Assembly (NCBI GenBank): GCA_051362555.1
Contig: CM120642.1
Location: 30,876,001 to 30,940,000, forward strand
Origin: Lingula anatina
Taxonomy: Eukaryota; Animalia; Brachiopoda
Length of the DNA stretch: 64,000 nucleotides
Direction: 5' to 3'
The notes beneath the pieces were generated by a model. It had not been told where the DNA came from. It ran no database searches and saw only the letters and a program-made list of their open reading frames with translations. Of the stretch, positions 3,837-55,400 are shown piece after piece (positions within the stretch are counted from its first letter, which is position 1; each line of letters starts with the position of its first letter). The position numbers and the translations under genes were made by a program.

Positions 3837-6800
3837 CTGAATACCTCCAGGTCAATAACCTTAGGCTCTCTATTTACGTAACTGGCACACACTGACAGTA
3901 ATGTGCATACCTTGACCTACCTCTATTTGCCATGCTAGTAAAACCATGACCCCATTTAAAAAAATATTCTTGATGTACACATTTGAACTGTCTCCAGTAT
4001 ATATGATTCTAGTAATAACAGTTGGCTGAAACAGTACTGGTGGCTATTGTAATGAGCAAGGGGAGCTTCACAATTTTTTCTTGCACATGACACACAATTC
4101 ACCATCAATAAGCTGTAAATATTCTAAACTTGTTTTGCAACATTTACTCACAAATTGAACAATTACACATTTATATTGCATTGTAAATGGCCCTTTTGTC
4201 CTGAAAAAAAAAAGGTTTTCAGTTGAACCATTTCGTGAAAATTCCTTGACAAATAAGAGTAGAAAAGGGCTGTGGAATGTTGACAATTGATATGTTGATT
4301 TACATGTAAAAAAATCAAGAAAGACAGATGAAGGTGTTACCCTTCATTCCCTTGCTTTTTTTTCATCAACACTTCAAATAAAAAGTGACAGAGATTGCAA
4401 TTCAAACTGTTTGCTATTTAGTTCCAAAAGGGGTTGTTTATGCATGGGACAGTAACGTGTGACACTGGTTTGATGAGATAATTAACAGGAATCCATCAAA
4501 ACGCCACACCCACTTAATATTCCATAACTATATTATCCGTATATAACAGTGTAAAGCGGGGTTAAACAGCCCAAACTGGCATGGTCATGCCTGACCTAAT
4601 TCTAGCCCTACCTGGCCTTGTCCTACACTCTACCAAGGGGACAGATTGACTTTTCACAAGATATTCCCAGATAATTTGTGTCTTTAGATAAATAGACAGA
4701 CATTTGATTCTCTGCTTTTTGAAATTTGCCTATTATGCTTGGTCATATTTGCTGCTATTCATGCCTGGACTAATTCTATACCAAATTAGCTTAATCATAT
4801 CTAGCTTTATTCTAGTCCCAACTTGCCTACACCTTAATGAAAATTCACATTTTTTTTCACTATTCCAGTCTGTTCTGTAATCTGTTCAATAGGCTAACAA
4901 TGTTCCCTTTTCCCTAGATTAATTTTATGACCTTTATGTAGAATCCATCTACCACCTTTTTGTACATATTTCGTTATTTTTAACCTGCCATCCAACAGTG
5001 GGGGTCATATTGCCAGGCCCGTAGCCAGGGGGGGGGGGTTCGAAAGAACTGCCCTTTTTGCTGGGAAAAGGTCCACTTTGGATAAAATTTGATCTAGGTA
5101 CATGAAGGTTTTATGATAAAAGGTCCACTTTTTCAGAAAACGAACCCCCCATTTGAAATTGCTGGCTACGGGCCTGTATTGCCATTATTCTGTTTTTGGT
5201 CCTGTCCAAAAAAAAATCCATTTTCCATAATTCAATGATTATTTTGATATAAAATTTCATCACCATTCTCATCCAGTGCAAGCGTAAAAGCTACCTATGG
5301 TGTTTTTTCCTCCCAAGATATTCCAACCCTCACAATCTCTCATTCTTGACATCACCCCTATGACCTGAAAACTAACTCCACATTCCACGATGAGGTCAAG
5401 ACCCAAAAGAGGACCAACCAATTATGTCCTCACATTTTGCGGTGACGTGCTGGTGGAATAATTTAGGCTGCATTTACTGAAGCAAGTGATGCAAAAAGAC
5501 CATAGACTGACTCAGCCCTGTGAGGTTAAAATATGTTTATTTTTCTTTACTTCTAGGGTACTTGTTCAAGTTATATTATGATTAACAATTTTTTCATGTA
5601 CTGAATTTCAAAGAACAGTAAACCAATTGTACTTTATTTGATTTTAAGCCAAGGGCAGTATCAATCACTGCTGCACTGGTTACATATCAACTTTTCTTTC
5701 TACAGATCTATTTTTTACAAGTCCAAGTATGCCAATTTGTTTTCTAAACAAGTCTAACTGATATCATATGTCGACATTTTTAAAAACTAAACTGCCTCTT
5801 TTTTACATGACAGAAATGTTGAGGCTCAAATGACTGTAAAAACCACAGAATATTTCATGCTACATAAAAATAAAATCTAACTAGACAAAGAAAAGCAATG
5901 GTAAAATTGGTTCTGATTACAGATTATGATTTTTCATCTTTTCTCAAAAACCAGTCCACTTCAGTCCCTGCCCAAAACCTTTCAGCCTAATTGGCCTTTG
6001 GGCCCCAAAGCAGAGCACACTGGCCTAAAGGTGATTGGATAATAATGGACACTATCAATTTAAGCAATTAAAATGGTGCCATTTTGGATAAAAAGGTGAG
6101 CAGGATGCGCGATGTTTCCTCTGAGTATTCTGTGGTTTGTCATAAAGTGAGTTTTTGAGTTTATAAGATGAAATTTTTTTGAACACTTCATAAGTGCTTT
6201 CATAGATTTTGTACCACCAAAGTTGCCATCAAGCCTGTAGGGCCAGTATATACAAAGGGCTTTTAAACTATTTCAATTATGGCAGGAACATCTCAGAGGC
6301 AGAAATTACATTAATCTTTCAAAGGTCTCATCTCTTAAATTATGCTTTAATCATAAAATTCAGAAAATCACCATTGCCTTTTCTCTCTCTTTCACCTTTA
6401 TGGGCACATGACACCTACATGATACTAACATGTTGCTATGGTTCAGACATGTAGTTGGTTAAGCAAGAATAACTGAGAATCAGCCACCTTGAAACCAATA
6501 CTTTTAAAAAGGCATTTATTCCTTATGCAAATAAGTAGAAAAATGAATGAAAAGAGACATTTTTTGCTATGTTTGATAATTAGGTCATTGACATAGTGGC
6601 GGTAGGGAGTCACCCAGACGACCCGTTATGCATACGTAGATCGCGAACTGCGTTTATGTACGAATGAGGCACAGCTGGAAATGACGTAATTATTAAAGGT
6701 GGCTGGAAAATAGCGCCGCTAAGGACTGGATTTGAACTAGCGGAAAAACGTTTTGAAGACAGACTAAGCGGAAAGGAGGAAAAAGGACTTAGAAAAGAAG

Positions 6801-9800
6801 CTGACGGGGAGGGAGGAGGTGAACGAAATAAAGTGAGAGACTTACCGATCTGCTACTTTAGCTGTACTCAAACACTGTCCTCTATTGTTGTACGTATAGT
6901 AGTAAGCGTTGTCGACGGCTGCACGTCTCTCTATAGTTGACCGCTCGTGCCGGAGGCTGGATACGATCTGACCGCTACTGCTAAGATCTTCAACGCGCAC
7001 ATGTGGGTCACATGTCAATTAGGACGCGTAACGATTGGTCAAGATGATGTAAGAAGTGCGGTAGAGGCACAAGTGGCTGTATAACGGCGCCAGGGCGACT
7101 CCCTACTTATTATGTAACGTCATAAATGGGATTGCGTCTAAGGCCGCAATCTTGTATTTATTCCTTATGCAAATAAGTAGAAAAATGAATGAAAAGAGAC
7201 ATTTTTTGCTATGTTTGATAATTAGGTCATTGACATAGTGGCGGTAGGGAGTCACCCAGACGACCCGTTATGCATACGTAGATCGCGAACTGCGTTTATG
7301 TACGAATGAGGCACAGCTGGAAATGACGTAATTATTAAAGGTGGCTGGAAAATAGCGCCATGAAAACGCCAGGACATGTGTAGCATGTACCTGGGGTTTT
7401 TCCGCCACCCAAAAAATGTAAATAAAGAAAAAACACCTATAATGAGATATGAACAATTTAATTATTGAACATTGATGCGTATATGAGAGGAAAAGGATAT
7501 TTAATTTAGTTTTGAAGTACCTGGAACTGTGTTGTAAAGTCCTTTGGTAAAATTTTTTGCGTATCAGTCCTTTGCTCTATAACAATATAAGCGTATAAAG
7601 TTGTTGTAAAACTATGCTGTCTTTTAAAAATGCTTAAACCACTGCAATCAGTAGAGGGGAAGTGACAAGTCCATGCTCCTATAGACGTATGTATATCTTT
7701 AACGTAATCGGAGCGTCGTCGCCCCGAAGGGTCAGTTGGTCGTACATACCCTTGCGTTTCAGTATATGAGTTCTATAACGAAATAAACGTATAAAATTGA
7801 TGTAAAGTAAGCTATCGCTTATAAATACATAAATCTCCTGTAATCGGGAAAGAAAAGAGTCTAGTCAATGGTTCTAAAAGCGGATGTATTTCTTGAAAGC
7901 GTTGGAGCGCCATCGCCCCAACGAACGGATCTGTTGGTCGGACATACCCCTGCTAGCAGCTAAGGTTGCGCCCCCGATACGAAAACTATGACTTCTTATG
8001 TTCGTGTTAGCGATTGAAGCGGACGCAAGGCATACTTGTAAGGCTCTGTTGAATTGGGAACGCCTCACTGGAGACCCGTCCTGATTTACGAAGAGGTGGG
8101 GGTAGGTGGAGGCCGGGCGGGCTTGGAGGTAAGCTTTACAGATGGACACCGGGCATATCGTAGGTTGCGAGATGATTGAAATCTGGAAGTTAGAGGTGAC
8201 TGATGAGTGTTTAAACGATCCAAAGGTTAGAGTCAGTTGATGGCTGGTCTGATCGTAACGTAGATCGTCCCGTAAGAGCGTATGAGGCGATGGTCCTGCC
8301 GTGATCTCACTAATGCGCAGTAAGCCGAAAAAGGCTAAAGAGAACATGGCCTTGTACAGGATTGCATTGTAACTCGAATCGAAAGCGTGTGAGGCGGCGG
8401 ATACGAGTTTTTCAAGGATAGGTAGAGTGATTGGCAGGCGTGTGTCCTGAGAAGGCTGTAGTCTCTGTAAGCCCTGAAGCGTCTGACGCACCAGGTAAGT
8501 GGCTGTGGGGTCCGTCATATTTCGCATTTTGTATCTGTAGCTTAAAGCTGACATGAAAGTTTTTATGGAGTTGGGCTTATAGCGGATCGCCAAATATTGA
8601 GCAAAGAGCGCCGTTATCGTAGCGTCTGCGGGGAAGGGTACTAAACCGGTGGACGCCTGAAAATCCTGTAATAGGTTGTCGATTTTTCCGTACGAACGTC
8701 GCGTTGAAGGGGCCAAGGCTGCGTTGATTGTATTGTTTAGTCGGCCAGTAAGATCTCGGGTGACAGATGACTGGGCAGCGGAACGGGATGGGGTGTGGCT
8801 GTCGTTTGCGTAGAGCGGAAAGTCTGAAAATCGAAGCGAGAAAGAGCGTCAGCTGCGACGTTGTCAGAACCTGGAATATGTTCGGCTTTGAATAGAATGT
8901 TGTAGGATAACGCAACAAGGGTTAGTTTGCGAAGTAAGCGGAGAATAACTTTTTCTTTTGTCGAACATTTGTTTAGAACGTATACTAGCGCTTGATTGTC
9001 TGAATGAACGATGACTTTTTTGTGAGCGAAAGTGTCACGCCATAGGCTGAAAGCTGCCACTATAGGATACATTTCAAGAACGGCTATGTTTAATTGCTTC
9101 AAGTGATCAGCCCAGGGTCCCCAGAACCACAGAGAGTTGAGTATCGCGCCGAACCCATGTTGGCTAGAAGCGTCGGTGTACAGGTGAAGGGTGTTCGAAC
9201 CTTCCCATGCGTCGTCGTGGAAGAAACCTCTTCCGTTGAACTCGAGTAGAAAACTTCTCCACATATTCAGGTCGGCTCGAGATTCGCTGTTAAGACGGAC
9301 TTTGAAGTATGGTTTAGAGACCCCTATTGTCAAGTTTATGAGTCTGCGAAGGAAGGCTCGGCCAGCGGGAATGATGTAGCAGCAGAAATTTAAGAGACCA
9401 ATGATCGACTGAAGCTCTTTCAATGTGATTTTCTTACTGCGGAGGTGAGACTGAATTAACTCTAAACACCTTGAGATTTTTTCGGCGGGAAGTCGGGCCT
9501 CTTGCTTTACAGAGTCTAGCTCAATGCCCGCGAACGTTATGGTCGTGGCCGGGTCAGTTGTTTTGTCTGCAGCGATGGGTATCCCGATGTCCTTGCACGT
9601 ATGAAGAAATTGTTGCAACTTGTTCGAACAACCTTGGTAAGAGCTTTCTACGACAAGGAAATCGTCTAGTAAGTGAGTCATGTGGGGAATGTCTAGCTTT
9701 GTAGCTGCGATCCACTGCAGTGCCGAACTAAGCTTTTCGAAGAGGCTGCATGAACACGAAAGACCCATAGGCAATGTTTTGTCGAAATAGAAAAACTGGC

Positions 9801-12800
9801 GATGTCGAAAGCCTAACAGAAAGCGGTAGTCTGGATGAATCGGAATGATACGAAAAGCATTTTCAATGTCTGTTTTTGCCATGAAGGCTCCCTTTCCAAC
9901 GGTCTTGACTAAGCGTATGGCGTCGGCGACTGTGGCGTATTGCACTGAAGAATGTTCTGGGTTAATGCCGTCATTAACCGAATGGCCTTCGGGGTGGGAG
10001 AGGTGGTGGATAAAGCGAAATTTGCCTGGGGAATTTTTGGGGACGACGCCGACAGGGGAGATTTTAAAATTTGGAAAAGGAGGGGTGGCGAGAGGGCCCA
10101 ATAAACGACCCGCTTGGACTTCGGTGAGAATTTTGTCGTCTAACGCTTGGGAAGTGTCGGAGGCGGACTGTAAGTTTTTAGTAGAATTTTGAGGGAGGGA
10201 ACCTGAAAAGGGGATTTTAAAACCTTCTGAAAACCCCGTAACTAGAAATTGAGACGTGACGATGTCGTAATTTGTGAGGTAACGTTCGAGGATCTGGGGT
10301 TTTACGGGGGTGGTGATGGACTGGTCCTGATTGTACGGCTTGTTTTGGAGAATGGCCTGCTGGAGAGGGGAACTAGAATCTTCGGAAGCTGGGTCTGGGT
10401 TGGTAGGGGGAAGGGCCGGAGGCTCGAAAGGAGTGGGATCGTTGGCGGGACATTTTGAATGGAGAGGGCTTTGACGAAAGTTGGGGGCAAGAGGAACGGG
10501 GGTGACTGCCCCTGCAGCCCATGCATTGGTGGGGGAAACGGCACGTGAGCGGGTTGCATGGCTGTCCCTCGTTCCAGCGAAAACAGAAGCCAGGTCTGGA
10601 GGCTGATTGTGGGACTTGGTCTTGATCACGTCTCGCAATGAAAGTGACCTCCGCCAATATAACTCCGTTAGGGTCCTCCCAGTTGAATCCAGGGGACTTT
10701 TGTTGTGCTCTGAACTTCTCGTCGTAGCGACGCCAATTAGGGAATTTGTTGGCCTGCATTTCGAGAATGCGGTTTGCGTAATGAAGGAGGCTCACTGCTT
10801 CCGTTGGGAAGCGCTGAAGGTGAATGACACTAAAAACGTGGAATGCGCACTGCCATTGATACGGGGTTATCGGAGACGAACGTTTGTGTGCAGGAGCCAA
10901 CTTAAACGAAATATTCCCGTCGTCGTCGACATTGGGCTGTGTAACGAGTTGTTGGGGCGTAGAAATTTCTGAAGAAGTAAGCGTATTTGACGAGGGGGGA
11001 AGGAGCGATTTCATATCCACGAACTCTTTAGCCCAGATTTTTTCCCTGAGGTTCTTGGGGACATGCTGGTCTAAAAGTGAATAGTGGCTCTTACCTTGAG
11101 AGCCCTGGTCCTGAGCCGGGCAGTGGAGGTGAGTGGGTGGCTGAAACTGTGCCTGGTTAGAAGAAGGATTACCCATGTAACCCTGAGAGGACGAAGGACC
11201 GGGATTAGAGGCGTAACCCGTGTTACCCTGTGACGACTGACGAACTTGAGACTGGGCTGGGTTACCCATGTAACCCGGGTTACCCATGTAACCCTGAGGG
11301 AAGGGAGAGTGTGTTGTGGCAAAGAAACCCAAGTTACTCTGCGACGACGTGGAAGGCTGGACATGTCCGGAGTTACCCACGAAACCCTGCGTGGTAGGCA
11401 GCTGAGATGGGGCAGAGTAACCCATGTTACTCGGCACTGCCCTTACAGCCTCTTGACTCCCGGTGTGTAAAGGTGCTTGGCCGTGCAGGGACACCTGACC
11501 CTGGATAGGATTACCCATGTAACCCTGTGAGGTGCCAGGTGGTGGGCTGTTTATGACACCCTGAGTAGCTGTATTGCTTGTGTGCGCATCTGATATCAGC
11601 GATCCGCTAGAGGGAATTGGGTTTGAGGCGGCGGCTGCTGCTCGTGGCGAGCTGTTTTGCCTGTGTTGATGCGCGACCTGCACGTTTGCGTCCGTCATAA
11701 CGGCGGTCGCGTATTCCCCGTGTTCCTGCAAGGCTTGAAGGAAGGAGAATCCTTCCATGGGAGGTGCAGGGATGTGAGGAAGTTGGCTCATGGTCTGAAA
11801 TAGAGAATGAATTGTTGTGACTCCCTGAGCAGAGATTTTAGCCCTGCCAGCTATGTGGGTGAGTGGGGGAGGGTGTCTGTATGTGTGAGTTTGTTTTATG
11901 TGAGAGGAGTAAAAAGATGGAAAGGTTCCGCTAATATGACGAGCAACGTACGTGAACGGATGTGTAAATAGTGGAACGTGATAAAATGTAACGAACTATT
12001 GCGATAACGTGTAACGAGCATAACGGGAACAGTAACGAATCTAGCCGTGATAACGTGTAACGCATGCGGCATAGTAACGGATGTAGCATGTAACGAATTA
12101 ACGTACGTAAGTATAACGTGTTTCATTGTGCGGAAAGTAATCTGAAAACGTGTAACTTAATGTGGCATGTCTGTAGTGAGTATAACGGGAAAATGTAACG
12201 AATCTAACGGTAATAACGTGTAACGTATGTAGCTTAATAACGGATGTAGCATGTAGTGAAATAACGAACGTAAGTATAACGTGTTTCAGTGTGCGGAACG
12301 TAATCTGAAAACGTATAAATTAATGTAGTATGAAACGTGTAAACCATGTAACGAATGAGACGAGATAATATAAAACGTATGTGGCGGTGATAGGAGATAG
12401 CGACTGCAGAATGTGCTACGATGTAACGAAAGGCCATGAAAACGTGAAACGTACGCAACTATTTAAACAGAAGCGAATCAAAAGAATAAAATGATGGCAA
12501 CGTGTGTAACGTAACGGAATGCGTATAATTATTATAACCTGAATAAACAATAAAACTAAATATAGTTAGTAGGCGACTTGATGCAAGGAGCGTGGTATAC
12601 TCACGCAGATGACGTCGCGAATGGATTACAGCGCCCCGTATCGATCGCCAGAGACGTTTTCGTCCCCGTGTGTTCAGATGAACTCCGTCGGAGCAGAGGA
12701 CGTCTTTCCACGCATCTTGGATTCCCACGTGTTTCCAGAAGTGTGCTCGTGACTTGGTTGAAAGTTGTCTTCGTAGTTCGTCGTTGATAACGTCGACTTG

Positions 12801-15244
12801 GCCATTGAAAGATTCCTGGTCCGATTCCTGCTTCAGGTAACCCCTCTGTTTGTATGCTCGAGGGTAAAGCTGGCCCCAGTATAAGTGAATGCGACGGTTA
12901 CGGCGGAGGATTTCATCAATTAAGAACAGGATGGAACGGATGACTGGTGTGGGATCGTGGCCAAGGCGAATGTCATTTTCACCCAACTGACAATATATGA
13001 AGTCGGCTGAGGAAACGGCGCTCCAAAGATCGGGAAATTGCCACATGCTGTGGACGTTAGCGCCACCACGCGCTAAGTAGCGTACTCTAGATCCAGCAAT
13101 ACCAAGATTGTTGGGAAGGTCACTGTCGTCCCGAAGTCGACGGATGAAACTATGTCCCATAACTACAACTTCCCGATTGTCTGGTTTCATGCTGAACGTA
13201 TGTGTACTAAGCTGCAAAGAATGAAGGAATAATGCGTGGGGTGAAGTGAGGGTATTGCGTGCTAAGACTTGGTAGTAGGAGGGGGTGTTGTAGAGACAAA
13301 AAGATGTGACTAGGCTATGAGCATCTGTTAAGTATTAAAGTCGGTTCTATTGAAGAGCTGGGTTAATGTGACGCTAATTAGCTCGTCCGGTGAAAGTTAC
13401 GTAATGACCTAAGTGATGTAAGCTTAGGTTACAGATTAGAGAAGACTTTGGAGCCATCTAATTAAACATGCATGTGTCCACAGATGTGGTGCGTGGGAAT
13501 GGCGTAAACATATCTGAACTGAAAAACGTATAGGAAGGCAAGTTTAAGCGTAAAAAGGGGCTATGTAATGTGTTACTAACGACTAATCTGTAGTGATAGT
13601 GTAAAGGTGAGCGTTCTAATAACGAGAGGGATGACTATCGGGGGTGAGGTTCATTAGCTACGGATGCGTAAAATATACTAGTGGACGTGTATTAATAATA
13701 AGCTTCACCTGCATGTCTATTAAGAGCTAACGAGCGGGGTATCTAATGTGACTAAACGAACTACCATACAGTTCTGAGTCCGGTGCTGAGATCCTGGAGT
13801 GGTAAGATCGACGATCGGAGGAAAAAACTCAACGTCCATCGGTGTTAAGTAACGACAAGAGATATAATGCCAACTGTAGACCATGATAACGTAACGAACT
13901 GATATTGAACGAAATAAAGTGAGAGACTTACCGATCTGCTACTTTAGCTGTACTCAAACACTGTCCTCTATTGTTGTACGTATAGTAGTAAGCGTTGTCG
14001 ACGGCTGCACGTCTCTCTATAGTTGACCGCTCGTGCCGGAGGCTGGATACGATCTGACCGCTACTGCTAAGATCTTCAACGCGCACATGTGGGTCACATG
14101 TCAATTAGGACGCGTAACGATTGGTCAAGATGATGTAAGAAGTGCGGTAGAGGCACAAGTGGCTGTATAACGGCGCCAGGGCGACTCCCTACTTATTATG
14201 TAACGTCATAAATGGGATTGCGTCTAAGGCCGCAATCTTGTATTTATACCAGAAGCCTAAATTTAGCACTTCCATCCCATAAATTTCAAATCTCATTTTA
14301 ATGCCCCTTCCTTATATGGGAAATAACAGAGATTCTGACCATCATAAAAACCCACTCTGCCCATTTTACATGCATACTGAGTTGCTGTCACGATACTAGA
14401 ATATCGGTAGTAAATCAATAATTCAACTACATAGTTCATTGTACGTATATGTATAAATCTTATTCAAGAACAGAAGCCATTAATATATGACAGCAAGTAT
14501 GGTTATAGCTGCCATCTTGTGGACAGTCCCCAACTGGATCTTTTCTCTCACAAATATGACCTTTATGTTTACAAGTTTATTGTTATCAATGAGAACAAAT
14601 ATCACAAAAGCCTGAAAAACACAGGTAAATAGTCCAGAAATTAGCATTCTATAAGCATCCCTGCCATGGACACACATACCAGCATAATTTGTTTACCAAC
14701 CACTGAGAAAGTTGAACCATTCAAGATTATTTTCCAAAATGGTATCAAAAATTATCAACATTTTCAACACTTAGAGAGCATTCACATCAAGAAGAGCCGA
14801 GGTCTAGCAAGGCCCAGAGCAAAATATGACTGACCTTCATGAAAGGAAGCCTGCCTAATCCTTTAACAGTCTATCAATGAATAAATTTGAAAATGGGAAG
14901 TTCAAGTATACAATTGATGATTCATTTGGCTTAAGTGAACATTTCTGTTATTCATTAACATAATATTAATGCTATTTATTTATCTTATGAACTTCATAAT
15001 CAGCATTTTATTAGCTTATTTACTTATTTCTATTATTTTATTATTGTTTTAGGGTCTCGGGGGCTCAATTCCTTTGTTTAAATTGTGTTGGGTTTTTAAC
15101 TTTATATACCAATTTTAGCACATTCCACACAAAAAGCAAACTGCCTGATCAAATATGTAAAGTGGAAGAACTTATGCGCATAAATAATCATCTGTAATTC
15201 TCTGCCAAGTTAACACACACTAATAAAAACTGACAGCAACCACA

Positions 15245-27727: not shown

Positions 27728-28308
27728 CATAGGCATAATGAAGTAGATATATTTTGAAGGACAAAGTGGCCTATTTATGTATGAAGATAAGATGAAATAG
27801 CTCATGACATATAAGATAAAATGGCATTTGATATCGATTTTTGCTGAATGCAGCTGATGCTGGTCTAACAGAAAGTCTGAAATAAAGAACGGTAGTACTG
27901 TCGAATGTGGATACAGCCTTCAGGAACGGGGGTTGGAGGGGAGGAAAGGGGTGTCAGGAATACATTCCTGAAACGTTTTGGATACCACATCTAGTGAACG
28001 CCTTATGGTAATTGAGGGTCGAAGGGGTGGTGGGAGGGGGGTTGGGGGAGTGGAGGGGGCACGTGCACATTATTCACCTTTAAATATCGTACTGCCGATG
28101 GGCAACGGTACTTGGGTTCTCTCGCCATACTCATTTATTTCAGAAAGACATCTTGAATTTATTGTAAGTGAAATTACTTAAACGTATCCTATCCGAGATT
28201 TTCTTTGAAAAAAGAAGTAATTTTTCTTTTAACTTTTTCAGTTTCAGAATTGTAGCTGAAAAAAAGAAAAACCATTCGCTATATAAATTGGATCTGCATA
28301 ATTTGAAG

Positions 28309-31300
28309 ATGGGAGAGCCGCAACGCAAACGCGCTATGAAAAGGCTACTGCAGGACTTGGAAGAGTTAAAGAAGTCCCCAGTGGCCAACGTGTCAGCCGC
28401 TCCTCTAGATAGCGACATGTTTGAGTGGCACTGTAACTTTAAACTCGATGATAACGTGTACCACCTTATCCTATTCTTTCCTGAAAACTACCCCTATCGG
28501 TCTCCAAGTGCAGAGTTTGTACCACGTGGTTTTCAGTATCACGGAGGAGCCACCAAAAATGGAAAGAAGGGAACGCAAGTCTGTTTGTCGATTTTCTCGG
28601 ATTTTGCCGATTGGCACCGGGAATGGGCGAACGACAAGGCCATGGGGTGGTCTCCCGGGTACACCGTACAGACAGTGCTGTTGAATATGCTGTCGTTTCT
28701 CATCGAGGTTCAGTCTGCCAATTCAGGTATGAATAAATCGGGTTTTCTGAAAACTTATTTGCGGGATAAACTTTTGGTTTTGTTTTGTGTGGTTTAAAAT
28801 TTATTTGATCATTGTGCCTTTGTCATTCAATTTTTCGAAATAAAAACCTTCTTTATTTTGTGTCTAATCTTCACCAGTAGTTATTTTAAATACAAATTTC
28901 ATACGAACTGAATCACGCATCGGGCTGCAGATCAGTAAAGCTAGATTATGATGGTTTGGATATTTGATGAAAAAAATGCGCTCATCCTTTATAAATATCC
29001 TGCACTAGGGTATCCCACAACAATGCCTTGCGACAAAAACCACGGTTTTAGTGTCATCTACATCTAATTTATTCAATTTGACAGCTTTAGGAGGAACAAA
29101 CGAAGCAAACCTGAAACGCAACCAGAAGTTTAAGTGTTCAGATTGTGGCCATAACTTCAAAAAGCCCTATCCGGAGTTGCCCAAGGAAAGCGAAACCACA
29201 GTGTCGCCACCTGCCGCAGAAGACGGTAAACCACATATAGTGTGCTATATTTCAAAGGCGCCGTTTAAGGTATAGTATGTTTACCTCAAGTGAATTCTTT
29301 TAAAAGAAAGTAGATAATATCCATCTTTCAGTCTGATTTGGAAGATTTTTTTTACTTTGATATCTTTACATGAGAATTATCATAAAATCCATCAAACATT
29401 ATCAGTGTTTACATAATTTTGTCTGTTAGACATTGTGTCTCCCTCTCGGATTTGAAATCCATCCAGTATTATATTCCTTTGTGTAAAATACAACTGGATG
29501 ATTATCATACACAGTATTATCATTTGTAAATGTTACAAATTCCATTCTTTCACTCAGAATTTCACAGGTTTTACACAAAAATGATTTTTAAAAAAATTAA
29601 TGCAAATTGGTTCAAATCATTTCAAACAATTCATTTATAATTTTTCTGAACCAGCCCTTACGTGTTATTAAAAAAAAGAAAAAAAAACAAAAAAAAAACA
29701 AACAAAAAAAAAAAAAACAAAAAAAAAACAGCACGAGTGAGTGTGATTACTTCAAGCTATTTTTCTCCATCCCAGGTTGTGAAGCCCAAGTGCCGGGAGG
29801 AACTTTATGGCTACGGTTTAATTAAATCAGGTCCAGACCATCGCCCGTCTCTGACCACCCCGTGCGAGTTTCTAACCGGTGATTCTTTCTACAGTATGCA
29901 AAAGTCTGTAGGAAACGTTCAGAGCATCATGAAGGAGGACCTAGCGTTCTTTCTGCCACTTTACATTCATCCAAAGCACGGCGAAGAAATCAAAGCCACG
30001 TTTGAAGAAACGATGAGGGCGGTGTCTAAAATATTGCCGGGGTGTAAGAGGGACAGCACCCCCATGGAGACGATAATTTTGCGCGTGATACCAAACCTCA
30101 TGGCTGCAACGGTGGTCGAGTTTTCTAAAGGGACGCAGCACGCTAGTGATAACCACCTGAGTGGATACTTCGCCCTCCATCGCTTGTTCCTATGGGCGTT
30201 GAAGGAGTATCCGAAAATGCAAGACATGTTGGAAGAGAAACTTAAAGTAAGTTCAGCGTCTCTTGGGGATAAATGGAAGAATTGTGTTGGTTTGTGGCGT
30301 CAAAACATGCACAGAATAGGCTTATATGTTTCACATAGACAGTTCTGATCTTATTTGCCTAGAGGAGAATTTTAAAACTCTGCACGCGACTTCCATCCCA
30401 GTTATCATAATTTAGTTATCCAGAAAAATCATAAATAATAATAATAAAAGTTTGACCCAAATTTATGAAAATATTAACACTCTAAACAGTATGTTCTCAG
30501 ATTCGTGCATAATTGATTATATAAACCTTCATCTGTAGGAATTTATCACCGATGAAGATCATCGCAGCAAGAAGGCATGCCCTCACATTGGAGAGTGGCT
30601 GATGTTGCTGTCGGCTTCAAATAAATACACGTAAGTACAGACTGAAACTCGTTAGTGTAAAATGAACGCCTTAACCGCTGTGCGAGATGGGTAGTTACTT
30701 TTTTCACTCATACACGCGTTTACCCTAGGCATGATAATGAAGCTAAAGAGGAGAGAAAAAAGACCAAAAAAAACAGCTTTAATATTTGTCTATATATTAA
30801 CCAATGCATTCAGATGGCAAGATGCTTCGGACGCCTATTTGTCAGAGAGTTGGAGACGTAACGTAATGTGGTATGTCAAAGATGACGCCAAGCTGGGGTT
30901 TATGGACACGCCGCAAAACTATCGGTTAGAAAAGACACTGCAAGCGACAGCTGTAAGCAGGAAGATACTGGCGTTCCAGGTTTGTATTTTTGAAAAAATT
31001 TTAAAAATTACAGCAAAATTTGTTTTTAGTTAATGGGAGATCAAATGCTGAAGTGAAGTTTTTGTGCACTATTTGTTATGATTTGAACTCTATGCAACTA
31101 GGTGAAGTGGCTCTTAATCTATGTGCCCCTCTTTCGCAAGTAAAATTCTATATTTCAGATATTTATAAGTGCAAAAATTATCACCGATAAACATTGAAAT
31201 TACTGGTTTACAGGTTTTATTCTTGGACATTGCTATGCCAAAAAGTATGACAAGAGATAACGTTGTGAAGCGGTATGACGAAAACTTTGGATTTCCAACG

Positions 31301-32643
31301 ACTAAAATGGTTGCTGAAATGAAGGCTGCTTGTAGCAAAATTGAGACCATGAAATCCTATGAAGATTGGTTTAAGGTAATATATATTTCATTATACCTGA
31401 TGTGCAGGTATCATGTATACCACACGTAAATAACTCATATATACCACACGTAAATAACTCTTTATATATGGAACAAGGAAATTCCTTTTTTTGACCCTGG
31501 TTTAGAAACATCTTGGCAACTATTATAAGAGATAAAACGCTTAATGCTACATGTCACTTCCTTAAATGTGAGGCCGCGTTAGTTTCAAACTGTACCTCAG
31601 TGATTTTCAATGGAAATAAAATTGAAAGAGCTTATTGATGAACTTCCATTGCACCTTTATTGTGTACGTAGGTGTTGCGCTTGGACCCTATACCGGACGA
31701 TAAGTTATTCGAAAAGTTGATCGAATCCCTAGAGTTTGCTATCAATACGGACGGCTATCACTGGTCATTTTGGAAAGGAGCCGGCGGCTGGACAGAGGTA
31801 AGTAGTGATGGGGAAATCGTAAATTTATTTTAGGAAAGGGGCGCATGTTATTACTGGCCTATAGTAAGCAATTTCAGAGTTTTTTTCTTTGAAAAAGTGG
31901 ACTTTTTATCCTCTGAGTTGACCCAACTTGAGAATCTTTGATATAGAACCTATAAATTGAATTTTTCATTTAGATCAGACCTTTTCCTGTCAGATGGGCG
32001 TGTCTTTGGACCCCCTACCCCGGACCCCTACCCCCACCCCCCGCGCCTACATGTACGAAACTGTTAGTCGAATGACTGATTCTTTGTGGCTGTCAGTGAT
32101 TTATGTTCAATTATTAGCCAACGTTGACGAGAAAAAAAAGTAAAATAATAGCCAGATGACTGTTACAAAAGGAATTCTTTCGTGTTTATCGCCAAATCTC
32201 TCTTACGGTAACACGCTGCACATGTCAATATTAAAAAAAGGCGTTTTAAAGAAAGTGAAAGAAACCATTCATTGTATTTTTGCACTGATGGTATCTATAT
32301 ATTTTTACAGGCCTTGAAGCGCTACAAAGCAACTGCGGGTGCGGATTCAAAGAAAGGAAAAGAGGTTAAACAGGGAAAAGCACAGGGAGCCAAGAAAAAT
32401 GATAAAGATTGTGCTTCCTCGACGGAGGACCTAAAAGGAAAGTCGAAAAACTCGAAGAAAACCGTGAAAGAGGAAGGAGCAAAGAAACCAAAGGGGCGTG
32501 CCACCAAAAGAAAGGTCAAGGACGACGACTCAGATACAGATGAAGAGGAGGAAGTTCAAAATGCAAAAGGCCGAGGAAGAGGAAAACGCGCAGCAACAGT
32601 GCCATCTCCAGGGAAGAAACCCGTTGCTAAAAAGCGGCCCTAA
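28309..32643 (+). CDS. Atypical long ubiquitin-conjugating enzyme E2 (UBC-domain) protein. Exons 28309-28726, 29085(or 29091)-29269, 29776-30246, 30539-30630, 30814-30979, 31214-31375, 31672-31797, 32311-32643
   Basis: UBC fold motifs KRLLQDLEEL, DMFEWHC, FPENYPYRSP, VCLSI (catalytic Cys), WSPGYTVQTVLL. All introns are GT-AG and phase-consistent. Followed by CSDCGH, a long helical region and a Lys-rich tail with NLS-like KKPVAKKRP. Confidence 0.85.
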
Positions 32644-44058: not shown

Positions 44059-46320
44059 TCGGCCAAGCGTCTCCTTTTGCCTTTGTCCATTGTTTGGTAA
44101 GCTTCGCTATATAAACCGTCGCTGTTAGCTAGTCATAGGGTTTTATATAGGCCACAGTAGCACGTTTCAAGTTGAGCATGTATAGAAAGATTTGCCTATG
44201 TCGCCTCGACTCGGATCAATACTAGCTTATGTTAAACGTTTCTCGATAAAGGTGAGTGATGATAGTTTCCAAAATTAAAAGTAATAGGGTGTGTCTGTAA
44301 AAGAAATACATTAAATGAGCGCAAAGACGACACACAAGAGTGAGAGGCTGATGACTGTTACTGAAATTGTTACAGCTGCTTATCATAAAAAGTTTCCCCT
44401 TCAAATGCCCCGAAGATTTGTAAAGATTTAGGCCTATAGTTTTGAATAGTTGTTGGCATAAGCTTTTCAATCGATCATGTGTGCATATTTAATATACCTC
44501 TACATAACCTGTATCAACCACGGTTAAATCAAGCCCTACAGTTGACATTTTACTAAATCGACGATGGTCATTTTGATATAAGGTGGGGGCAAAGTTGATC
44601 ATCGAGACCAATATTGGTCCCGTCAAACATAGGGTGTCCAAGTCAAGGCATACAGCTACTTGTCTTGAAACTTCACTCTACGGTGGAAAACATGAGAGCA
44701 TTTTTGTTTTAAAAGAATGGGTTTGAATATTTGTATTTTCAACCATAGTATTCCATAATCAATGCGTGTAAAAAGATAGTTGGAGAGAGGCGAATTAAGT
44801 AGCCTACAGAGGAGAAGTAATATCTTTTACCTTATAGAAAGTATTTTGTGGTAGTAGAAGTAGTTGTTAACTGTCCAGCTCTCAGTCTTAAATGTTCTTA
44901 AAAATTCACATGCATATCTCAGGAGTGTGAGAAAATGTCAAGGCATTTGAAGAGGAATATGCAAAGGCCGGCTGAAACGCCTTTTGATAAAACTTAGTTA
45001 AACGTGAGTTGCCAGACAAGAGTTACGTGGTTCACCTTTAATTATTTAAACCCAGTGCTTTTAAGTTAATTGCCCACGTCTTTCATATGCAGCGTTATTT
45101 AAAATTACTTCACTGGGTGGGTTTCAAAAATGATTCCATATGAAAGAGACCTCGATATTTATATAGCTACACAAAAGGGGATCGATTAATCGCCTTAGTT
45201 GTACATATATGTACAGGCAATTAGGGCGTGTCCATTTGCTGGCCGTATCACATATCCAACGGCACCGTGCCCTGTCACAGCCACAACAAGTGTGTGGGAT
45301 TAAATGCGTTTGTTTATTAATTCATCCGCCTTTATTGTGCGTGTTTTTCACTTGAGAGTAGTGATATTTTATGAAAGCCAAAATGACAAGCAAGATTTGC
45401 AAGGGCTGTCGGAATCATTGTAATACTAGATACTGTTCTTTATCATGCTAATACAGTGTGTACCAGCATCACAGAGAAATATATTTCACCAGATATTTTC
45501 ACAGATATTTGTCAAGCTGTGCACATTTCTATTCTGTGACCCTGCCCAAGAAGTCATTATAACTTCTTGCCTTGCAAATGATGAAGACATAGGTCTTTAG
45601 TTATAGGGTTGGCCACTGTTACATAACCACATTAGACACTGACGTCTGTTGGTATTGTCCCACTGTTGTCTTGACCCCCTTGCTTGCCCAGCTGTGCCAG
45701 ACAATACAGAGCCTTGGTGATGAAACACAATACTGATTCAGAATGAGGTTAACTGAGGGAATCCCTTGCAGTACAGTAATGAAATGTGTGGAACATTTCA
45801 TTTTATAGAATACAACGTAAATAATTAGGACTGAGATAATTAGGAATTTAATTCTAGTACTGGATCTTGCATTGAAATGGAGATCGCGACGTTACGGCCT
45901 TATATCGCAAGGTCTTCTTCGAACTGATTTTGAATTATCACCGGTGGCTCGTGGTGGCGTTCTGCCCTAGGAAAAGTTGGAATTATGGTATATATTAAAG
46001 ATACTTAAGATAGCTTTACCTTCTAAGTTATGAATATGCCTCCTTATTCATTTCAGATCCAGACTACTACATGTATCTATATGAAGTAGAAGAACATCCA
46101 AGTGAAATGAGATAAACTGTTGCATTTTAAAAACAGAGAACGAGAATACGACGGAAATCAAAGGGACGGAAAACTTATCATCAGCAGACATGACATTAAT
46201 TTTTTTTGTAAATGGAGTTAACTAATTTTTCCCCTAATTAGTCAGAGACATTTTACGATCTGGGTCTATGCAAGTGGGATATCGCACACTGCGGACAGTT
46301 AGCACCAATCGCGGGAGAAT

Positions 46321-47615
46321 ATGGCGACGCGACCACCGCGGATTCATGTAGACCAGCGAAAATGTCTGAGATACTTGATTGTTTCGGTTTCTATACTTTT
46401 GCTGTCTCAATTTACAGTAAGTCTCTATTTCACATACGTGAAATCATCGACAGTGACATTTAAAAGGAATTTTGACCCAACATCAAGTGATACACCCTTT
46501 GGCATAGTAGGACGATTACTGGTATCTTCTCCTCTTCCATCATCATCTTCATCATCATCATCATCATCACCATTAGCGTCCACCAGTGCCTCTGTATTAA
46601 CATCCGCCTTGCCATCATCAACATCAACTTCAATACCTTCACCAACAACATCACCGCAATCAATTAAGTCAACTACACCGTTAACCACGACATCAAAACC
46701 TCCTGACGCTAAATTGAAGACAGTTAAACCAACTGGAATATCATCATCCACGGCCGGGACAAACTTTACCACGACAGAAGGGCCAAGCACCAGTTGGGAC
46801 GGAAGGTGTGGGGAGTTGCCTGCAGGACTCGGTGAGTGTTCTCTTTAAGGGACCATCAATGCAATGCAATAGAATGTCAATGCAACTGTCGATCTACTTA
46901 AGTCGACCAACATCAAGGGGACTTTCGCTGAATGAAATCAGATTAAAGTATCAGCACGCATCCTCATGCCGTTGAGTAGAATGGAAACAAGATGAGGGGT
47001 CCTAATCTGGTAATCTGTTTGCATTCAGTGAGAGTCCCGCTGAGTCAATCTACGTAAATCGATAGTTTTATTGAGTATGAGCCCTTGAAGTTTCTATATT
47101 ATATCTATATTATGTACTAAAAAAGAACATACATGTATAGCGTACACAAAAGAAAAATACGCCAAAACTCATGAATGAAACACTAAGAAAATAAATTGTA
47201 TGATTTGATTGTCATTACATCTTAATGATGCTATACTTACCAACAGATGTAAACATTGAAACCAACAATATATGTCAGCTAGAAAAAATAATACATTTTC
47301 TCACCTGTAGAGGGACGCAGGGTGGTCAACATGATGCCGCCATCTTGGGAAGACCTGCACCAAAAATTCAGTGGTAGCGGCATTCTTCCTGGCGGACGCT
47401 GGAAGCCTAAAGACTGCGTTCCACGGACCCATGTGGCAATAATTATTCCGTTCAGAGAGCGCTACGAACAGTTACGGGTATTTCTTAACAACATGCATCC
47501 ACTTCTCCAGAAACAACAGTTGAATTACGGAATATATATAATTGATCAGGTTGGTCCGGTAGCTTCTTCTTTTTTTTTTTTTTTTTGTTTAAATCAATGT
47601 TTATCTTTCATTCTT

Positions 47616-47651
<36 letters not shown>

Positions 47652-50600
47652 TCCCGAATGCACCTTTAAAATAACTTTTATAAATTGGTCTTGAAAACAT
47701 CACTACATTTTTTAGTAATCACATTATTATATAGAAATAGTGTATTTGCCTTTTTGGTGAAATAAAAGTGAAAGGTGAAGAGGACGTATCCCCGAGTCTA
47801 GACCAAATATTATTATCATTTTATTGCTTCGTACTAAAAATGCCTTTCGAGTTTGCAAACTTGATTTTGTACTGAGGGATATCAGTTAAATTGGCATGTT
47901 AATCTCAGAGTACTTTTTCTTTTAAATGTGACCGATAAGACGACACTTGGAAAAGGTAAAAGCCATCATTTTACAAATGTGAGAAAACTACGATGTGAAT
48001 GAAAAAAATCGCTTTATCTTTGACTCCAGTTTTTAGGCTAAACTCTGAAAGTTTATTTCTTTTCACTTTCAGCGTGTTGGGTTCCACTTTAACCGTGCAA
48101 TGTTGATGAACGTAGGGTTTGTAGAGGCAGGAAAAATCGAGGATTACGACTGCTTTATTTTCCATGACGTAGACCTGATAGCGGAAAACGAGCTGAATAT
48201 GTATAGTTGCCCCGCAAAGCCGAGGCACATGTCTGTCCTTATTGACAAGTTTAACTACAAGTAAGAGACATATAACACATAAATAGGAAGAAGTCACGGG
48301 TGAATACAAATAAGTAAGAGGGAGGTGGGGATTTTTTCTATTCTCCAGCTTTTACATGAACAAGAACGTTTAAGCTTGGATTTTACATTTGATTCTAAGA
48401 AAAGGAAAGAGATATATTATTAGAAAACTATCGGCGTAGAATTCGGAACTCTGTCATTTGTCTTCTTCGATTATAATTCAGTTTGCTTTGTTTTCTTAAA
48501 AAGACGTTTTTGTCTCCATATTTCCAGACCTCAATACTCGTACATTTTTGGCGGTGTGACTGCGCTGACCAAAGAGCACATGCACAGGGTTAACGGCTAC
48601 CCTAACCTCTACTTCGGTTGGGGCGGCGAGGACGATGATATGTCTGCAAGGTATTGATAAGCAAAAGTTCTATTTTATTGCAGCATGCTATGGCTATACA
48701 GCAAGCAGCAATGAACGTTAAAAATTTTCTAATTACCATTTACTCGTCCCTGTCTCCATGCTTCTACAAGTAGTCACTCTGGAAAACGCAGTACTTGTTA
48801 ATTTTGATCATAGCCAAAATGCTTTCTTTTTCAAAAATTAATCTGAATAAATTAATGGAACGCATTGATTCCTTTTATATATGAAGTTATGTAGATCGAC
48901 TTTGTTACCTATGTCGCCTTTTTCAAGCAGTCATTCTTCAAAACGTGATATATATTTGTAGACCAAGCGGATGCTTTTTCCTAAAGTGAATTTGAATTAT
49001 TTAAAGGAATCAGTAGATTTATTTTATGCGGGACACGATACAGTACCACAGAGCATTACATCGTTTGCATTACCTAAACAGCTTCACGTTTAAGCAATAA
49101 TAAGTTATACTAATGAGGATACAATGACAGGCAAGATCCAGCGGGTTCGCTTTGTTTTTTGTACAGGCACGTAGTGCATATACACATATACCTGTATATG
49201 CATATACCTGTACATATCGCACATATCGTCACCACCTACCCTCTACCAGGGCGACAGATTGATTTTCTACAGATATTCACAGATTTGTCTCTAAATAAAT
49301 AGACAGTCATTTTGGCCTGATGTCGCTTCAGCCAAAAATGTTCACAATAATAACTGCGATCCTGGTAGAGGGTAGGCACCACCCGCGTCTATCGGCGCCG
49401 TCGCCGTGCACTTTCAGAGATTGATGGATGTTCTTTAAGTACAGGTCGAGTTCGAAAAAAGGCTAAGTCGGACCATTTTTCCAAAAATTATGCTGTTTAT
49501 TCTGTCAATACAAAAGAGACGATAAAAACACGCCTGAGGTGGGGGTAGTCTGAAACTGTTAATAATACATAACGATATAGTGCTTACATAATAGCTCATG
49601 CGCAGCTAGGAGTCTGTATTCAGTATTGAGTCCTTGGTGCAGCTTAGACCCGCCTCTTATTCAGCTAACACGTCGTTTTATACGTGACCAAGTTAACAAG
49701 TATATTGAGGGCAAGAAAGTCTTGTTGCCATACATCTCTCGTTAGTATTGAAGTAAGAACTACCAGTACTTGGGGTGAAAATTATGTGAAAACCCACACC
49801 TTGGCATGTATGACCCTAATCCCCCCCCCCTCCTCCTCAACACAGTTCCGGTTCCAGATCCCGTTTTATTTCCATTTTACTCTGTTCATGCTTTATCTGC
49901 TGTGTTTCTTAAATGGATAATTTTAAAGCTATGACCATATTGAACTTGTGCTGTTTATTTTAAGCTTCTTTATTTAGCTGTATTCATGCAATTGAATTGG
50001 GGCATAACTTTTATTACCGCAATAAGTATGAATATCATACACTTGAAAGAAATTAATCAATGTAGATCATTATGGTCTCAATATAATAGAATCGGTTCTT
50101 ATCAACGAAAATCTGTTTATTAATTTTTTTCTTCTTAATTTTCAAGTAAGATATGCCTACATTAATGCCTGTTGTTTTCTTCCAGAATACGAAGTAAAGG
50201 CGCACCAGGGTTAAGTAGAGTTCCCGGAGAGATAGGAAGATATAAAATGATCAAACACAAGCGAGAAAAAAGTAACCCTGTAAATCCCCTTCGGTAAGTG
50301 ATATATGCCATGTCTGCCAGTGGGAACCTCCTTTGTGCTCGACCGATACAGATATGTTTCCCTCCTCCAAGAGGAGGTTAGGCCCTATATGTTCTCACCC
50401 CCGTTTGTCTAAAGTCATGGATGAATTTCGATAAAATTTTCAGGATATCTAAGAAATGGTAAAAAAGATTTCCCATCCACCCTATTTGCACAGGGGTCGT
50501 TTGCGTATATTTATCATTATCTTTTCTGTCACGCGTGCGTCATTAGCTCTGCCCTTTTTTGCTTCTCCGCTCATTGCGATCGAACAACTAACACAATCAA

Positions 50601-53391: not shown

Positions 53392-55400
53392 TTATATTTC
53401 ATAAAGATTCATTTTATTTAACTCTTCTCTTTTCTTGTCGTCTGCTTTCGAAATGTTTTTCGTCTTGCTGTCACGTGGCGCGGCGTTGTCCTTGTGGACG
53501 GTCACGTGATACTGCAGGGCAACGGAATAAGTTGGGGGAGTGGAGCAGAAGTCGTTAAAATCGACAATTTCCAACCCGTCGTCGGTGACGTATGTGCCCC
53601 TGGCTGTTGGTTTCATTGGTACCATCTGTCCGGTGATCTTGTCCCCCTGTTTGGAGGTGGAGGTGACAGACGCGTTCCTTTGTACACCAGACAAAGTGTA
53701 TTCCCCGGAATCGGCTGCCTGAAGATTCAAGGTGATGTTTGAAGTAATTCTCGTCTCCTCATCAGAGCTAGGTTCAGTCGCCACGCCAGTCTTCTTTTTT
53801 TCTTTACAGCAAAATAGCAGAACAAGGAAACCGCAGCAGCAGCAGGACAGCAGCACGGCGAAACCAGTGCTCACGGAGAAAATAATTAAGGTCGTTTCGT
53901 CTTCAAGAAAGTGGCCCTTGTCATTGGTCCCAATCCTCGCTTGGGCACTTTGGTTCGATTTCACCTCAGTGGTGATACGTTCACGAGGAGACTTAAATCC
54001 ACTTGTTGTTCCTGTTTCTGCCGGCGTCACTTCTAAGACTTTGGTTTCGAAAGCCGTTGTTATTGAGGCGGCATCCGTTGTTGTCAAATCGCTTCCGCCC
54101 ACAGCTGCAATTGTCAGGAAAATTAGGATTAAATATGTTGCTCGTGGATAGTTTTGTATTATGTTTATTTTGGAGCGATTTATGGCTACTGACTGACATG
54201 ATCTGCAAAGCCACTCAGTTAATTTGGCATTTTAACAGAATCTATGCTAAACGAGCAGACAATCGCACAGAAAAGTAAAAATTCTCTAAGCAATGTCACC
54301 GTTCATCAGAATTATCGATATTTCACTTATTGCAGTTGATGCTAATACTTGTTAACTTACTCCAAACACTAGAAATAATTAGTTATTTGTAAATTACAAG
54401 TTAATGCTTTGGCAAATCTAACAATCTTTATATTGTGCAGCTGCAGCATACGGTTTTAGGGTTGTATAACCAAATTCTAACCTTGACAAAGAGCGCTGGA
54501 GATTTCACACACTATATCAGAAAGCGAATCAAAGTTCAGTACGCTAAATACGTGAGTGTCATTTGGTTTGCTGGCAATGGAAGCTAGTTCATTGAAGTCG
54601 ACCATGGTAGCGTTTCCAATTCCTATGCAGTATATTTGCATCCCTTCCTTCCGAATTAAATCTGCCTCGTGTATGGTTTGAAGTTTGTCGCTTGATTCAC
54701 CGTCAGTGAGAAGAATAACCACTTTAGGCACATTATGTTTTATATTGTTTTTATAATGTGGATTTTGAGGATTAAATAAACTCGTTCGAATATGAGATAA
54801 CCCTTTATGCGTTTCGGTAGCACCGCCGTTATGCACGATTTGCCTTATTCCTTCTGTAACGTCACCGTGGTCTTCTGTCCAACTAAAAGCGTCTCTGTAG
54901 CCATTGCTGAAGAGTGTTAATGCAACATGTGTTTGGGTTTTGCCGATGGTCAATGAGTCGGTGATGCTGTTCAAAAATCTAAGCATCTTTTTGAAACTGT
55001 TCTCATCAATACTGCTTGAGTCGTCTACCAGGAAAGCGATATCACCTTCGCCATTTTCACAACTGCAGTTGAATGTGCCAGTTTGTGAGTAACCACCTGA
55101 AATATGTATCTTAAAAATGAATCTAATGCAATGATCTTATAAAAAAAGAAAAGGGCAATAGCATAAAGGGCATCATTAGTGATATAAACAGATGGAAACT
55201 TTTTATTGAATTATTATCGATGAAAATTTTACTCTAGGCGTTTGTCATTCGAAAATCCATAAATCATCAAGACAGGATATTTCTTGAATGTAACTTGCAA
55301 TGAGAAAACATATTTATTATTAATTTGTAATAGTAAACTTACCTGCGTAAAAGAAAACATGAAAGCACCAAAATGCAACAATAAGATACCACGGCTTCAT
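53392..55400 (-). CDS. vWA-domain type I membrane protein (short paralog). Exons 55400-55343, 55096-54482, 54104-53392
   Basis: Signal peptide MKPWYLIVAFWCFHVFFYAG; vWA with MIDAS (DIAFLVDDSSS, GGATET, LLTDGES); Thr-rich stalk; TM helix with a Cys cluster; cytoplasmic PPTY. TATAAAA about 85 bp upstream (~55482-55488). Confidence 0.85.

Follow-up and report, generated by a model that had tools for sequence, protein, structure and literature searches.

The stretch of Lingula anatina DNA analysed here, 64,000 nucleotides of contig CM120642.1 (positions 30,876,001 to 30,940,000 of the forward strand; hereafter the window, position 1 being its first letter), contains on its minus strand an Ngaro-type retrotransposon that runs from 14247 to 6514 and carries an SGNH/GDSL hydrolase gene ahead of gag. 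The order of its parts is A1-SGNH-gag-RT/RH-YR-B1-A2-(102 nt)-B2, where A and B are split direct repeats, RT/RH is reverse transcriptase (RT)/RNase H and YR is tyrosine recombinase. Both element ends join unique flanks, the SGNH gene sits within A1...B2, and the four frames after A1 (SGNH, gag-like, RT/RNase H and YR) are all open. No further copy or fragment of the element was found elsewhere in the 64-kb window. The element is intact and recently inserted. Its features, from 5′ to 3′, are as follows.

14242..14247, no strand assigned: 6-bp core at the 5′ element end, the likely YR crossover core; the hexamer is repeated at 6514-6519 and in the B1/A2 overlap at 7156-7161
13906..14247, minus strand: split direct repeat A1, the 5′ end, identical to A2 (342 nt, 100%), with a predicted splice donor (first intron base 13931)
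13191..13905, minus strand: non-coding leader, with a second candidate splice donor at 13708 and an acceptor with first exon base 13211
12459..13190, minus strand: SGNH/GDSL hydrolase, 243 aa, own ATG at 13190 (frame 13334-12459), GHS subtype, complete Ser-Asp-His triad and oxyanion residues
11792..12458, minus strand: SGNH-gag spacer, 667 nt, CGTTA-rich, with a 163-nt tandem repeat (12016-12326) and, 3 nt short of the gag ATG, an acceptor whose first exon base is 11794
10373..11791, minus strand: gag-like open reading frame (ORF), 472 aa, ATG at 11791 (frame 11995-10373), strong phase-1 donor at 11094
8737..10791, minus strand: RT/RNase H frame with LDDF and TDAS...LEMY...SDN...ADALS, Pfam RVT_1 and RT_RNaseH, overlapping gag by 419 nt
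7874..8848, minus strand: YR frame with R, K, HxxR, W and Y motifs, Pfam Phage_integrase, phase-1 acceptor with first exon base 8823
7156..7359, minus strand: repeat B1, identical to B2 (204 nt, 100%), AATAAA at its end
6820..7161, minus strand: repeat A2, identical to A1 (342 nt, 100%)
6718..6819, minus strand: unique 102-nt spacer separating A2 from B2
6514..6717, minus strand: repeat B2, the 3′ end, identical to B1, with AATAAA at 6520-6515 and the 6-bp core at 6514-6519

The A and B repeats overlap by the 6-nt core, and the identical hexamer stands at both outer ends; it is likely to be the crossover core of the tyrosine recombinase, and the B1/A2 join has the same sequence as the predicted circle junction. 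The split direct repeats A1...B1-A2-B2 have their internal pair downstream of YR, with the 102-nt spacer between A2 and B2, and RT/RNase H is followed by the recombinase on the same strand. No methyltransferase follows RNase H; the frame ends about 30 aa past the last RNase H motif and gave no Dam match (among outgroups in the same search, L153 gave a weak match and L151 none). The first ORF after A1 is not gag, since SGNH precedes it. In the literature consulted, the Ngaro group is defined by its repeats, the lack of a methyltransferase and RT phylogeny. Judged by its repeats, domain order and methyltransferase absence, the element is of the Ngaro type (order DIRS). PAT-like membership was rejected, split direct repeats being present but the methyltransferase domain absent, and so was DIRS1-like membership, only direct repeats bounding the element, with no inverted terminal repeats with an internal complementary region. 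Nine DNA runs (three studies, one organism) contain 67-85% of the element's sampled words, and the run index showed no RNA run containing them.

The predicted hydrolase matched Pfam Lipase_GDSL_2 with an E value of 8.5e-07 and 30.1 bits, slightly below the 32.9 cut-off. Residues S14 (GHS), G43, N72 (GEND), D168 and H171 (DGVH) are present, and each is at least 90% conserved in 82 aligned relatives. An earlier note on this DNA had read these catalytic residues as complete and the ORF order A1-SGNH-gag-RT/RH-YR-B1-A2-B2 as uninterrupted; the former was borne out by the motif positions and the alignment, the latter by the repeat comparison and the stop-free minus-strand ORFs. The AlphaFold model of the hydrolase has a predicted local distance difference test score (pLDDT) of 95, and a Foldseek search with it returned platelet-activating factor acetylhydrolase (PAF-AH) and other SGNH folds (E about 1e-9, probability 1.0, template modelling score about 0.65 to PAF-AH), the closest folds being PAF-acetylhydrolases and sialate O-acetylesterases. 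The protein has the marks of the SGNH superfamily, with Ser in block I, Gly in block II, Asn in block III and Asp-x-x-His in block V, on a modelled α/β fold. In a profile search, the best solved match was the ZfL2-1 ORF1 esterase (PDB 4C1B, E 1e-10). The isoelectric point (pI) is about 10, no transmembrane segment is present (maximum hydropathy 1.3), and the relatives are mostly basic too (pI >8 in 10 of 11).

A word-indexed protein search with the SGNH sequence gave no match, and a full HMMER search gave 639 relatives at E ≤0.001. The named relatives come from Nematostella, Pecten, Lingula, Owenia, Mytilus and Pinctada. No relative was found in the viral contigs searched, and no usable pattern emerged from the SGNH alignment. 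A search for longer fused SGNH proteins returned two matches, one being a Mytilus gag-RT-SGNH gene model and the other a protein that looks unrelated. Three Lingula and Owenia gene models (P0123, P0135 and P0202) start with a GHS-type SGNH domain and continue into low-complexity sequence; these are possibly mis-joined SGNH and gag of 5′-type elements, and no gag-domain match was found in them.

Placement of the hydrolase was surveyed in 80 metagenome loci, the best of 449 that encode RT relatives (44-54% identity), so the survey covers near relatives only. A Nematostella protein groups among the surveyed RT relatives. The 80 loci fall into 31 families at 85% nucleotide identity; the families are related, and counts over them are not independent. 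The results showed that SGNH lies upstream of RT only in 40 loci, on both sides in 2 and downstream only in 3, and that it is absent from 35, all of which have less than 2.6 kb upstream of RT. SGNH precedes gag in 18 of the 31 families, and it was found in the stretch after YR in none of the 18 families having at least 700 nt there. Flanks diverge 270-370 nt before SGNH in 7/7 families with testable copy pairs, the single contigs L056 and L119 carry an A repeat before SGNH and again after YR, and 15 of 17 relative families have an ATG 9-20 codons ahead of GHS. Given these placement counts, flank divergences, A repeats and own start codons, the 5′ SGNH layout is real and lineage-wide. In the relatives, SGNH and gag are separated by spacers of 400-815 nt, some with tandem repeats. 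Five of the 80 loci have SGNH 1.1-1.4 kb after YR. In four of these five, the fifth being L026, the downstream SGNH is approached through sequence identical to what precedes the 5′ SGNH of sibling copies, and a simple A/G-rich run marks the break in L073 and L075; the apparent 3′ SGNH of L009, L036, L073 and L075 was therefore rejected as a true 3′ layout.

The ratio of non-synonymous to synonymous substitution rates (dN/dS) on SGNH was calculated between families. The two pairs with the least saturation gave 0.17 and 0.08, and the next two 0.15 and 0.11 at dS >2, the remaining pairs being saturated. Within families, nine pairs held 1 synonymous and 0 non-synonymous changes, too few for dN/dS. 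The dN/dS check proposed in the earlier note thus gave values well below 1 between families but too few changes among within-family copies. On these between-family substitution patterns, the 5′ SGNH is judged to be under purifying selection. SGNH and RT distances correlate with a rho of 0.88 (n=11, families not independent), a pattern by which SGNH is taken to be co-inherited with RT.

The RT trees were built by quick methods or FastTree from hand-picked subsets (57 rows and 23 rows). In the SGNH tree, the 5′ GHS enzymes separate from the 3′ enzymes with Shimodaira-Hasegawa-like approximate likelihood ratio test (SH-aLRT) supports of 91 and 97, and esterases of long interspersed nuclear elements (LINEs) from the same contig set are placed separately. 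In the RT trees, the 3′ elements are united with a support of 100, and their clade is nested in a group of 3′ and 5′ elements supported at 99; the RT of the window element joins the 3′ elements at this 99 level and stands apart from the long-ORF outgroups (100). Both layouts occur in G001, a 9 Mb bacterial genome bin that appears to be heavily contaminated with host repeats, because it holds dozens of contigs with animal YR retrotransposons and LINEs. The 5′ GHS elements of this bin are L087, L118, L119 and L120; its 3′ elements are L085 and L123-L128, with L129 more distant, and in these SGNH lies 64-331 nt after YR and has a GDS or GSS motif. All six of the 3′ enzymes examined have a phase-1 CAG at a fixed place, 14 nt before block I. 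The orders gag-RT-YR-SGNH and SGNH-gag-RT-YR are one order on a circle, so relocation of a repeat block might speculatively have been a route between the 3′ and 5′ layouts, with independent capture as the alternative.

G001 also holds two ORFs (L133:2322-5126 and L134:4022-6883; 934 and 953 aa) in which SGNH is fused in frame to the RT/RNase H C-terminus. Both match Pfam RVT_1 and, weakly, GDSL, and both lie in YR-containing elements, with YR upstream of RT in L133. Read from these frames, the RT-fused tail is a third placement of the esterase.

In published elements, an Ngaro hydrolase is placed 'after the YR', in amphibians and with its function unproven, according to the available part of PMC9210276, which agrees with the earlier note's statement that SGNH is drawn downstream of YR. 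The parts available of PMC7192593 and PMC6681497 mention the Ngaro hydrolase without a 5′ position; the word 'hydrolase' was not found in those of PMC3783388, PMC8547959, PMC4157794 and PMC13465315, and those of PMC7599744, PMC2632668, PMC4021074 and PMC6431247 held no case of a 5′ hydrolase. In a full-text literature search, with Repbase and Dfam outside its scope, no title or abstract described a hydrolase upstream of gag. Within that literature scope, which is without Repbase and Dfam, the 5′ SGNH is a new architectural variant of Ngaro and is common in related animal elements. The earlier note had regarded the SGNH-first order as a distinct architecture. This stands in so far as the layout differs from the published 'after the YR' position, has its own GHS group and is selectively kept; it is not peculiar to the window element, as 18 of the 31 families have it.

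The closest described elements are Xenopus DIRS-53_XT and DIRS-54_XT, which, as far as the available part of PMC9210276 describes them, share the split repeats A1...B1-A2-B2, gag, RT/RH and YR, the lack of a methyltransferase and a fourth ORF with an SGNH hydrolase. They differ in that their SGNH lies 'after the YR' and all frames overlap, whereas in the window SGNH comes first, has its own ATG and is followed by a 667-nt spacer. The GHS motif marks the 5′ enzymes, versus GDS or GSS in the 3′ relatives from the contigs surveyed, the Xenopus elements being compared by description only. Three-ORF Ngaro elements (Ngaro1_DR, Lv_Ngaro2 and the Cafeteria Ngaro) have the same repeat structure, gag-RT/RH-YR order, internal repeats downstream of YR and lack of a methyltransferase, but no hydrolase ORF is mentioned for them in the available text of PMC8547959 and PMC4157794; the latter counts 114 Ngaro elements in Nematostella and 53 in Lottia. 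Outside Ngaro, the ORF1 protein of ZfL2-1, a LINE of the L2/CR1 group, likewise combines an SGNH fold, a complete triad and a basic character in an esterase encoded by the first ORF of a retroelement (4C1B; available part of PMC3905857), in keeping with the earlier note's statement that some CR1/L2 LINE ORF1s carry SGNH esterases. However, that enzyme is a domain of a coiled-coil ORF1 protein in an element without long terminal repeats and without Gag, whereas the SGNH of the window is stand-alone beside a separate gag in a YR element. The Helitron texim and Terminon SGNH/GDSL passengers are also stand-alone genes on mobile elements with a speculative membrane role, but they belong to other element classes, and texim has introns and no RT link (PMC4021074 and PMC6431247, parts available).

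The gag-like ORF was named by position, as in the literature. Its N-half is of low complexity, and its C-domain, with CCCH and CCHC-like zinc knuckles, is conserved; the position of the ORF, this domain and its Cys/His knuckles are common to 34 relatives. No Pfam match was obtained for gag, and the Gag model (pLDDT 86) had no match in Foldseek or VIA-align (best Z 4.9). Modelling of the Gag domain together with SGNH gave a score of 0.01, too low to speak for or against a complex. A QGYMGNP-like motif occurs five times in the Gag N-half (window 11151-11538), and several of these copies also score as splice acceptors. The RT and YR frames have no ATG ahead of their conserved domains. Two short ORFs 3′ of YR (7506-7772 and 7268-7576) were rejected as genes, having no credible family match.

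Splice sites were scored with a generic matrix. Upstream ATGs number thirteen from the 5′ end to the SGNH start and nine in the spacer before gag, making plain scanning of the full-length RNA unlikely. The strongest acceptor in the element (score 8.8; first exon base 13211) lies 21 nt before the SGNH ATG; a donor is predicted in A1 (score 8.9, first intron base 13931), with a second candidate at 13708. A short 5′ exon spliced to 13211 would give an SGNH message. Alternatively, the same exon could be spliced to the acceptor at 11794, which has a pyrimidine tract and CAG, skipping SGNH to give a gag message. An acceptor within 16 nt of the gag ATG occurs in 5/16 relative families (4 of 15 with their own spacer control, versus 0.7 expected, p 0.004). 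The strongest donor, 11094 (phase 1), joined to acceptor 8823, would fuse the first 232 Gag residues in frame to YR. At this YR acceptor, the Gln codon is CAG in 25/25 families versus a 40% background; three families lack the Gln, among them that of the window element, in which the acceptor comes two codons further on. Just upstream of the conserved domain, a phase-1 gag donor with a score of at least 8 occurs in 10/18 families versus 1.7 in codon shuffles. These predicted signals suggest separate SGNH, Gag and Gag-YR messages made by splicing.

The RNA reads of X11 (97 reads) and X12 (83 reads), both from one study, lie mostly in one orientation across the leader, gag, RT and YR, which would be the sense one in a stranded library of the usual type. 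Coverage in these runs is thin over SGNH (X12 only) and almost none over the spacer, and the sense depth in X11 increases from near zero in the spacer to a higher level at gag. This last profile is also what would be seen if an internal promoter in the SGNH-gag spacer drove gag (and pol), SGNH and gag then being two transcription units and not splice isoforms. The spacer contains its tandem repeat and 21 copies of CGTTA in 667 nt, versus 23 in 49.7 kb of flank. We take CGTTA to be a MYB-like core, and the spacer might possibly be an enhancer or promoter. In relatives, too, the 400-815 nt spacers, some with tandem repeats, separate the two genes, and 11 of 16 families have no strong acceptor at the gag ATG. 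However, the window does have a pyrimidine tract and CAG 3 nt before that ATG, acceptors are enriched over the spacer controls in relatives, the element already shows strongly conserved YR splice signals, and low spacer depth is equally compatible with an intron. Two transcription units are regarded as unlikely but still as a serious alternative.

Several observations count against separate spliced messages and a distinct 5′ lineage. The splice scores come from a generic matrix, and the families, being related, do not give independent counts. The gag acceptor is clear only in those 5 of 16 relative families, and most families do not conserve an SGNH acceptor or a leader donor; a conserved acceptor for RT was looked for and not found. 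No splice junction was seen in four RNA runs, whose depth is very low (29-175 reads per run), and sense-oriented reads cover the leader at 13350-13937, which splicing from the A1 donor would remove. RT monophyly of the 5′ lineage is supported at 74 only. Nor is the contrast between startless and own-start enzymes absolute, since an upstream ATG, at a distance of about 10 codons, occurs in two of the six 3′ enzymes as well.

With these points taken into account, the reading that we favour, and hold to be somewhat on the probable side, is that of an intact Ngaro element of a widespread lineage in which the SGNH gene comes first and probably yields, from a spliced message, a free basic esterase predicted to hydrolyse membrane lipids in aid of the particle. 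The enzyme would not be joined to Gag; it would bind and hydrolyse membrane lipids, helping an RNA-protein particle to form or move. In the 3′ sister lineage, a phase-1 join would tether SGNH to Gag, so that a move to the front would free the enzyme. With a phase-1 acceptor in the 3′ SGNH and an own ATG in the 5′ SGNH, free versus Gag-tethered enzyme is probably the main consequence of the 5′ versus 3′ position. For integration, YR would recombine a circle at the 6-bp core; recombination of a circular intermediate by YR is the established integration model for the YR-retrotransposon class.

As for where the enzyme acts, the available part of PMC3905857 describes the ZfL2-1 esterase as hydrolysing short esters and as using its surface charge to bind anionic phospholipids and liposomes. 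By analogy with that esterase, and given its own basic character, SGNH is given about an even chance of acting at membranes while the particle assembles or is trafficked. The esterase could instead be an early accessory enzyme for counter-defence or host modulation, such as a deacylase acting on a host protein, glycan or lipid signal, and not a particle or membrane assembly factor. Its being free, placed first and unfused to Gag would suit such a role, as would its nearest folds, the PAF-acetylhydrolases and sialate O-acetylesterases. Many Ngaro elements have no hydrolase (none is mentioned in the available text of PMC8547959 and PMC3783388), and deacetylation of messengers and depalmitoylation are among the options in that of PMC3905857. 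On the other hand, the basic surface and the nearest mobile-element relative, the ZfL2-1 esterase, point to anionic membranes or RNA-protein particles, and the apparent Gag tether in the 3′ lineage suggests a particle-linked role. Host modulation is considered rather unlikely.

That the 5′ position is an artefact of a circularly permuted assembly or tandem copy, or that SGNH is a neutral passenger or nested foreign gene, is very improbable, although both gene orders are identical on a circle and 5/80 loci have SGNH after YR, since the window ends join unique flanks with SGNH inside A1...B2, the downstream SGNH of four of those five loci is reached through sequence identical to sibling 5′ upstream sequence (L073 and L075 breaking at the A/G-rich run), and the flank divergence in 7/7 families, the low dN/dS and the congruence with RT speak against it.

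These findings bear on the role of esterases in mobile elements, which are present in LINE ORF1, Ngaro, Helitrons and Terminons. No form is easier to express, assay and knock out than a stand-alone enzyme of about 200 residues that has its own start codon in an intact recent element, where no fusion partner has to be guessed. Together, the 5′ version, the 3′ version of the sister lineage and the RT-fused version indicate that the gene persists through changes of position and tethering, and that covalent linkage of the esterase to Gag is probably not required. With SGNH first, many invertebrate DIRS-order families will have their 5′ end wrongly placed by gag-first annotation. A bolder proposal, which we regard as a long shot, is that a large overlooked animal Ngaro lineage has as its first gene product a free lipid esterase with a spliced message of its own, serving as an envelope-free membrane-remodelling factor for trafficking across membranes or between cells. 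If this were true, the three esterase forms of YR elements (free 5′ gene, Gag-spliced 3′ exon and RT-fused tail) would suggest that YR retrotransposition generally involves a lipid step.

In RNA run X17, nearly all reads are partial and diverged. It contains diverged short pieces of A, B and the spacer (window 6724-6824, 6948- and 7171-) within unrelated host transcripts, which suggests old solo-repeat relics elsewhere in the genome. Run X20, which bears the same species label, contains 0.01 of the words. Outside the element, the window contains a host gene with a ubiquitin-conjugating domain (28168-32643), a glycosyltransferase 7 (B4GALT-like) gene (46303-47669) and a large IgGFc-binding/VWA mucin-like gene (53392-62746).

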